Positions 28,097-28,663 of a DNA stretch of 64,000 bases are shown piece by piece. The notes below the pieces were generated by a model. The model was not told where the DNA came from. It saw only the letters and a list, made by a program, of their open reading frames with translations, and did no database searches. The translations under genes were made by a program, and so were the position numbers. The stretch is from Eledone cirrhosa (Eukaryota): assembly GCA_964016885.1 (NCBI GenBank), contig OZ024740.1:310682001-310746000 (forward strand), read 5' to 3'. Within the stretch, counting starts at the first letter, position 1. Each line of letters opens with the position of its first letter.

Positions 28097-28663
28097 AGCT
28101 ATCGCCGTATTTTGACTAAAGAAATTAAAGAAATTATTTAGCCTGATAGTGGGGTTAAGAACCCTCGGAGAAATGGAAATACATGAGTATTGACGTACAT
28201 GGGAGTCGAACCCACATCTTTGATTATCCAGACCACTGTGCTACCATTTACACCAATACATCACACGTGTTATTCCATTCAAATTAGAAGCTATAAACTT
28301 AGCGACTGTAATGTCAAGTAGGAATATTTTCGAAACAGCGAGTGGGTTTAAAATTATTAGAAATGTAAGCTATCGCCGTATTTTGACTAAAGAAATTAAA
28401 GAAATTATTTAACCCCACTATCAGGCTAAATAATTTCTTTAATTTCTTTAGTCAAAATACGGCGATAGCTTACATTTCTAATAATTTCAAACCCACTCGC
28501 TGTTTCGAAAATATCCTTATATATATATATACATATACACACACGTATATATATATATATATATATATATATATATATATATATATATATATAAGGATAT
28601 TTTCGAAACAGCGAGTGGGTTTGAAATTATTAGAAATGTAAGCTATCGCCGTATTTTGACTAA
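28097..28663. mobile_element. Family E: 270-bp permuted unit with tRNA cloverleaf, in direct and inverted pieces within (TA)n; second locus 58266-58605
   Basis: aagctatcgccgtattttgac at 28097 and 28367; inverted segment 28411-28517; extra direct piece 28594-28663. Confidence 0.85.
28191..28262 (-). tRNA. tRNA-like sequence (pseudo-tRNA, GGA at the anticodon position) inside family E
   Basis: GATGTAT/GTACGTC acceptor, GTGT/GCAC D-stem, GTGGG-TTCGACT-CCCAT T-arm, A and B boxes; G27-A43 mismatch, U37 and short variable loop argue against a decoding tRNA. Confidence 0.75.

Follow-up and report, generated by a model that had tools for sequence, protein, structure and literature searches.

Animal non-LTR retrozymes are non-coding, low-GC repeats of tandem or permuted units of about 170-400 nt. 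They are linked to Penelope-like elements (PLEs), and RtcB-type circularisation has been proposed for them (PMC7229834; 10.64898/2026.07.22.740005); here and below, citations refer to the accessible portions of the sources. The repeat described here has the same unit type and the same link to PLEs, but it lacks a hammerhead and carries a tRNA cloverleaf on its closing helix instead. It also resembles non-autonomous PLEs such as MRC1, which form partial tandems with an inverted 5'-truncated arm at (TA)n targets and have two 3' ends 30-40 nt apart (PMC8557442; PMC11167929). It differs from these in bearing a Pol III-type cloverleaf, and no autonomous PLE sharing the end sequence of the unit was found in about 1.7 Mb of loci. 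With tRNA-derived SINEs the repeat shares tRNA-derived A and B boxes, a probable Pol III start and non-autonomous retroposition. Unlike them, it has the tRNA inside a permuted unit, inverted arms and internal reverse-transcription starts in place of the layout with a 5' head and a simple tail, and its mover appears to be a PLE and not a LINE. tricRNAs show the same predicted C32:G pair, 3-nt bulge, cut after position 37 and enzymes, TSEN and RtcB (PMC4536317; PMC6614914), whereas the predicted intron of the repeat would be a full copy of the mobile element, built between two tandem units. Permuted and split tRNA genes likewise form a bulge-helix-bulge (BHB) from separately placed halves and have circular intermediates, but they give functional tRNAs (PMC4090602), while the cloverleaf of the repeat is unlikely to decode. 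Helenus and Cassandra are also non-autonomous, with an internal promoter derived from a small RNA in the terminal repeat; those are LTR elements with primer-binding sites, and the accessible portion of PMC10886601 describes no loop pairing for them.

The window is the whole 64,000-nt stretch of Eledone cirrhosa DNA that was analysed, from a 3.0-Gb assembly rich in TA repeats. Two loci of the repeat lie in it (Table 1). At the first, a terminally redundant, permuted repeat of 270 bp had been proposed from the sequence. The permuted unit holds, and its length is corrected to 271 bp, the period between the two copies of aagctatcgccg that begin at 28096 and 28367. The redundancy is also present, and it reflects a partial tandem of the circularly permuted unit, followed by two more inverted arms. 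The second locus, previously placed at 58266-58605, belongs to the same family with bounds of 58265-58607. Across subfamilies the unit measures 259-291 bp, and dimers as well as arrays of 10 and 23 units were found. Positions in the unit are numbered from t1, which is base 1 of the cloverleaf (28262, minus strand). Up to t47 they equal the standard tRNA numbers, and beyond that the standard number is t+1 (A58 = t57).

Table 1. Features of the repeat in the window and of the two comparison families
Feature	Position	Strand	Remark
First arm, 1.17 permuted 271-bp units	28096..28414	-	Spacer, leader, cloverleaf, trailer and 3' module; 3' end enters TA repeats
tRNA cloverleaf, 72 nt	28191..28262	-	
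A box	about 28244-28255	-	Within cloverleaf
B box	about 28202-28212	-	Within cloverleaf
Anticodon loop, 32-38	28225..28231	-	CUGGAUA in window copy
Self-complementary positions 32-35	28228-28231	-	Predicted 4-bp central helix between two units
A36-N37-A38 of anticodon loop	within 28225..28231	-	3-nt bulges; putative cut at 37/38
Leader, -1 to -18	28263..28280	-	Pairs with trailer; partly decayed in window copy
G-4	28266	-	Candidate Pol III start, in leader
Trailer	28171..28188	-	Strand of 18-bp clamp helix
T5 run in trailer	within 28171..28188	-	Candidate leaky Pol III terminator; interrupted in window copy
Second arm, inverted	28409..28518	+	3' module only; stops at downstream 3'-end zone before TA repeats
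(TA)n target tract	28518..28593	.	
Third, short arm	28594..28662	-	3' module, flanked by TA tracts
Other (TA)n tracts	about 28077-28096 and 28663-29373		
Second locus, inverted arm	58265..58409	-	5' end in 3' strand of acceptor stem, at edge of common stop zone
Second locus, sense arm	58435..58607	+	Cloverleaf position 8 to upstream 3'-end zone; loop CUGGAUA
Hammerhead family H locus (comparison, non-member)	57378..57854	.	Inverted arms
Minimal hammerhead cores of family H locus	57658 and 57536	+ and -	Palindromic stem III
Other family H loci	L398, L400, L411-L440		
Family F	L330, L332-L340, L364-L407 (G000)		Found among the genome's best tRNA matches

The predicted cloverleaf matches Rfam model RF00005 with 46.4 bits, compared to a gathering score of 29 (E = 9.9e-7). 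ARAGORN calls it Ser(GGA), and the minimum-free-energy fold is a cloverleaf, with an unremarkable energy (z = -0.75). Its D arm is similar to that of host tRNA-Gln. A cluster of about 30 tRNA-Gln-like genes lies at G000:C1:168211000-168276000 (L345-L363), and the anticodon loop is altered in some of them. A second ARAGORN call in the window (Thr, 63666-63749, minus strand) lies in a long coding-like frame and is probably spurious. The details given earlier for the anticodon arm (GGA, U37 and G27.A43) are as described. The arm had been read as atypical, and this does not go far enough, since its loop is conserved and self-complementary. U33 of the window copy is a variant, as 57 of the 84 loci of its subfamily have C33 (loop CCGGAUA). 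Decoding is unlikely because two lineages have C33 or G33 and the young ones have no purine at position 37. We regard the anticodon arm as the most informative part of the repeat, and it points to tRNA splicing (TSEN/RtcB) or RNA dimerisation.

The reported absence of a hammerhead was upheld. A CTGANGA..GAAA core occurs in neither locus of the repeat, and 21 cores lie elsewhere in the window. No ribozyme was found in a natural dimer, for which Rfam at E ≤ 10 gave four matches, two of them tRNA and two chance. In genome pattern searches, the anticodon arm had 1,612 exact matches and a 3' motif had 2,188, each with 0 in the backward control. The family therefore has at least 1,612 copies, far above chance; candidates number 2,303 in all, and 40 of them were scored. 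A search allowing a variable loop of 5 nt had 27 matches versus 20 in its control and thus no new family. For one other pattern, the backward control was uninformative (2,832 matches versus 49), and two metagenome pattern scans gave 0 matches to the repeat. Contigs of run X4, which behaves as RNA in that one contig skips a GT..AG intron, cover parts of the unit but leave its upstream spacer uncovered; RNA ends and circles are not visible in contigs. As noted before, the tRNA is internal and is not a SINE-like head: 139 of the 168 copies reaching the 5' end of the cloverleaf continue upstream of -5. The internal tRNA, the inverted arms and the two internal 3' ends rule out an ordinary tRNA-derived SINE. 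Target-site duplications are unreadable in (TA)n and so were left unscored.

Insertion anatomy was studied in 81 loci picked by the 3' motif, which leaves the 5' ends without pre-selection. Both orientations are present in 53 of these loci. Among their 156 segments, 128 end at the 3' side in two zones with peaks at t178-183 and t217-221, about 38 nt apart, and AT-rich DNA adjoins 113 of the 128. Of the segments, ten are more than a unit long, and 26 cross 37/38. PLE insertions combine partial tandems with an inverted copy truncated at its 5' end; they have a tail of 30-40 bp and lie at (TA)n targets (PMC8557442). The PLE protein, which is predicted to be dimeric, extends both strands from two internal starts, and these define the tail (PMC11167929). 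Since the insertion pattern matches this anatomy, PLE mobilisation is well supported, and the repeat was very probably moved by a PLE. The original prediction of retrozyme-like, PLE-type mobilisation is supported by the insertion anatomy together with the lack of a hammerhead.

PLE fragments near copies of the repeat are separate insertions in TA tracts, none joined to a unit. Fragments of at least two clades lie in the window at 39355-40487 (-), 34130-34543 (-), 21040-22182 (+) and 52479-53242 (+), with more at L075:5638-7837 and L091:1104-2910. Nearby PLE open reading frames carry Hydra-type motifs named in PMC8557442. Pfam found no domain in four PLE open reading frames, so the Hydra label rests on these motifs. 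The Hydra-like fragments (DKT, CxCx5C; no Pfam detection) have hammerhead-like cores nearby. At 2898-6530 (+) the window also contains an uninterrupted 1,210-codon frame that reads like a LINE endonuclease and reverse transcriptase with C-terminal zinc fingers, possibly a young active element.

Rare variants are shared in direct pairs at 7 of 23 loci, compared to 4-17% of random pairs, with three array loci excluded. This gives modest support to rolling-circle copying. From dimers that pass their first cloverleaf and from the analogy with retrozymes, we infer a circular template. The long arrays, L080 with 23 units and L115 with 10, were rejected as proof of a rolling circle, because their nested shared variants indicate later, satellite-like expansion at the DNA level.

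The family consists of four young lineages (A, B with CUGG, B with CGCG, and C) and an old family, D, with a shared layout. Family D was found by a pattern excluding the young anticodon stem; 34 of its 53 copies have the D arm and 24 also have a readable stem. A tree of the 3' part separates the young clade from family D (100/100). This tree was built without the CGCG copies of subfamily B, which were placed by differing from B's CUGG copies at 5 columns only. Comparison of the lineages shows two-sided changes at four stem pairs, 2:70 and 4:68 in the acceptor and 29:41 and 30:40 in the anticodon stem, and a shift of 27:43 from G.A to C-G. An 18-bp helix joins leader and trailer in the young lineages, where A-to-G substitutions in the leader preserve pairing as G.U. 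The same helix is visible in single copies of family D, where the column table is too noisy for scoring. The acceptor-stem top is broken in subfamily C, and tRNA stem lengths are otherwise normal. C32:G35' is invariant in all lineages, as are A36 and A38, and position 37 is U, A or C. The pairs 30:37' and 29:38', which would extend a plain palindrome, show no covariation.

These patterns bear on whether the cloverleaf is simply a passenger or an insulator-like tDNA captured in a PLE terminal repeat, with an idle RNA fold. Such capture would agree with the tRNA-like promoters of other non-autonomous elements (Helenus, PMC10886601; family F, below) and with the neutral decay of copies after insertion. 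It is contradicted by the compensatory stem changes between lineages, by the leader changes that keep G.U and by the switch between CG and GC in the loop, and we give it hardly any chance of being correct.

Self-complementarity of loop positions 32-35 was counted by eye in a search that placed no constraint on the loop and was seen in 89 of the first 100 matches listed (44 CUGG, 28 CCGG, 12 CGCG, 2 CUAG and 3 others). With one copy per locus it was found in 143 of 156, a set obtained partly by patterns that fix C32 and G35. We estimate that about 1/10 of arbitrary C32 loops are self-complementary by chance. Broken loops are scattered single changes, like neutral decay, and the evidence therefore lies in which states spread. 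The states propagated in spreading lineages are CCGG, CUGG, CGCG and CUAG, all of them self-complementary; in subfamily A, CCAG occurs once versus 21 times for CUGG. Transitions among CUGG, CCGG and CUAG keep pairing anyway, so the informative changes are only the CG/GC switches, about two events. CG and GC states both occur in the young clade and in family D, where CCGG was read from decayed copies (n = 5). None of the 27 direct pairs mixes two main loop states. The loops of inverted arms are nearly always compatible: among 15 inverted-arm pairs with a CGCG arm, one is CGCG/CUGG. This exception is L085 (G000:C1:136612700-136620700), a single insertion, and it suggests that its two arms derive from two RNA molecules. 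Overall, pairing between loops is likely to be under selection.

The 5' ends of the chains are concentrated in the T arm, with 71 of 140 in t55-70 and just 2 in t11-54 (p = 4e-32, even versus a conservative 150-nt window). The modal ends at t62, t63 and t66 coincide with a CATG palindrome and with AT/TA target microhomologies, as would result if a reverse-transcription stop just 3' of A58 were trimmed. The modified base m1A58 blocks reverse transcriptase. Alternatively, the RNA could be cut by a T-loop nuclease or an undescribed ribozyme, in which case the pile-up would be a true RNA 5' end. The strength of the pile-up agrees with this, as do the less frequent halts there in a second pass and the lack of excess misincorporation at A58 (substitution 0.024, compared to a median of 0.02 for A). 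However, the palindrome and microhomologies at the modal ends are expected for a trimmed stop, Rfam detected no ribozyme, and the loop palindrome would be left unexplained. We consider such a cut improbable.

Ends near the start of the cloverleaf were analysed in 194 copies containing the anticodon arm, array units included. From +4 to -5 there are 29 ends among 168 copies at risk, about 3.5 times background (p = 1.5e-8), with 8 exactly at G-4. Positions -1 to +3 hold 16 of 194, positions -2 to -10 also 16 of 194, and t272 to t3 holds 8 of 140. With its edge at -4, this distribution is better explained by Pol III initiation and a leader left uncut than by RNase P, and there is a good probability that the candidate start at G-4 is genuine. 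The original prediction had named both Pol III and RNase P/Z. Its Pol III part gains indirect support from this edge, while RNase P/Z as the processing step was not supported. RNase P, with or without RNase Z, would have to cut successive cloverleaves into unit-length RNA. The acceptor and T stems are kept, and some ends do lie at -1 to +3 and at t272 to t3, as this would predict. Against it, the edge is at -4 and not +1, ends continue to -10, the acceptor top of subfamily C is broken, and the loop is left unexplained. The leader is also clamped to the trailer by the 18-bp helix, which should hinder both enzymes. No precise deletion of the cloverleaf was found in about 1.7 Mb of loci, where the sole pattern match is an inversion junction. 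Processing by RNase P is therefore very improbable.

We tentatively propose that the repeat is a mobile tRNA gene with its own copy as its intron, and that the circle excised by TSEN and RtcB would be copied back by a PLE protein. Pol III would start 4 nt upstream of one cloverleaf and would sometimes read through the T5 run into the next unit. Since a transcript from -4 leaves the trailer of unit 1 mostly free for the leader of unit 2, it could drive a co-transcriptional swap. On the basis of folding and lineage variation, trailer 1 is predicted to pair with leader 2, the two cloverleaves to swap halves and their loops to pair. The self-complementary loops and the covarying acceptor and anticodon stems mean that tandem units could form a BHB at the canonical 37/38. 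This swapped dimer would resemble a pre-tRNA with one whole unit as intron, its 4-bp helix flanked by two bulges of 3 nt each. Both would be cleaved by TSEN, leaving the same ends as a hammerhead (5'-OH and cyclic phosphate), and RtcB would circularise the excised unit. Both strands of (TA)n would be nicked by a PLE protein, perhaps one of the Hydra type that targets TA; the enzyme is presumed, and the pattern is present in the genome. Reverse transcription would begin internally, at two starts spaced by about 38 nt. Some three quarters of the passes would end within the T arm, probably halted by m1A58 or by the folded elbow, and these stops would give short inverted arms and only occasional multimers.

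Several properties of tRNA splicing are relevant here. The C32-G proximal pair is present in all 16 fly intron tRNAs, and cuts are made after position 37 (PMC6614914; PMC10485636). Eukaryotic TSEN can cut BHB substrates (PMC4090602), tRNA introns circularise (PMC4536317), and monomers of animal retrozymes are circularised by RtcB (PMC7229834). In fly cells, the yield of circles was lower when the anticodon-intron helix was fully paired (PMC6614914). The genome has TSEN catalytic genes, and one is spliced in run X4. No RNA ends, circles or cleavage of the repeat were observed, and no indel scar was seen at 37/38. The release of a unit-length RNA circle by TSEN and RtcB falls just short of an even call.

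Eighteen natural dimers were folded from -4 to the second T run with the D and T hairpins enforced. All 18 contain the cross-unit 32:35' pair (p ≥ 0.48), and the clamp is swapped in 15. The folded dimers are mostly in a slipped register, the outer acceptor stem is seldom predicted, and the BHB register has p ≤ 0.35. The slipped register (31:36') beats the BHB by about 1.4 kcal/mol in the young subfamilies and ties with it in family D. For isolated arms, a duplex is favoured over two hairpins by 4-9 kcal/mol. In unconstrained folding, the loops paired in just 2 of 6 dimers and the other 4 folded otherwise.

The better folding of the extended duplex compared to the BHB also suits a SINE-like element that PLEs mobilise without any RNA processing. 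Its templates would be linear Pol III read-through transcripts of tandem copies and DNA-expanded arrays. The palindromic loop would act in kissing or dimerisation, delivering two RNAs to the dimeric PLE protein, or it would be drift. The 5'-end edge at G-4, the growth of arrays at the DNA level, the extension of both strands by a dimeric protein (PMC11167929) and the compatible loops of inverted arms can all be explained in this way, and family F has the same loop in a single tRNA-like gene. But many dimers reach far upstream of their first cloverleaf (L007, L014, L036, L074), so linear masters would need to be at least trimers and to be regenerated. The acceptor and anticodon stems covary, though a promoter needs just the A and B boxes. 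In addition, the extension pairs 30:37' and 29:38' are unconserved, and family F is limited to 4 bp. We find mobilisation without processing rather unlikely and retain excision by TSEN and RtcB as our working proposal.

The repeat is a real variant of non-autonomous PLE, apparently not described before. In the literature covered by our search, we found neither a PLE passenger bearing a tRNA nor a transposon processed by TSEN; an entry under another label may exist. The word 'tRNA' does not occur in the accessible portion of the retrozyme-PLE preprint (10.64898/2026.07.22.740005), nor 'ribozyme' in that of the octopus repeat annotation (PMC13282606). If excision by TSEN and RtcB is correct, a substrate of host enzymes can take the place of the ribozyme in retrozymes, and the repeat would be their protein-processed counterpart. 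It would also be a natural non-tRNA substrate for animal TSEN, an open question in PMC10485636. tRNA introns would then be tied to a mobile element, and the life cycle of an animal transposon would be driven by the splicing of tRNA. On the weaker reading, the repeat is still a Pol III-type passenger of PLEs, none of which was found described in the literature searched.

Two other families of this genome were compared to the repeat. Hammerhead family H has a 308-311-bp unit with 20,162 matches in the genome pattern search. Its insertions are multimeric and inverted, with arms that reach about 11 units, whereas the arms of the tRNA repeat are mostly shorter than one unit. The minimal hammerhead of family H is a weak Rfam match (17.8 bits, below cut-off). 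Like the cloverleaf of the tRNA family, it sits on a long closing helix; its stem III is a CGCG palindrome, and it could act as a dimer. None of 12 mapped 5' ends in family H lies at the predicted cleavage site, so a lack of ends at 37/38 in the tRNA family is to be expected. Sequence homology between the two families was not confirmed: one of six units had a pairwise score of 48 versus a null of 28+-4.8, but a spacer profile had 0 family H matches among the rows tallied. The likeness is an architectural parallel only.

Family F is unrelated to the repeat. The element, with 63 exact matches in the pattern search, measures about 1.7 kb; its ends are fixed, it has a hairpin at the terminus, and one end is repeated inside it in inverted orientation. 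We take it to resemble Helentron-associated elements. Its single tRNA-like gene has a T4 run and is mismatched at G27.A43, and the loop is CCGGCAA in 56 of the 63 matches. This loop can form only a 4-bp helix. Its CCGG shows that such loops recur, and since family F has no tandem partner, such a loop need not serve tandem excision. Elsewhere in the window, a 70-bp minisatellite with 19 copies at 98% identity occupies 55449-56788.
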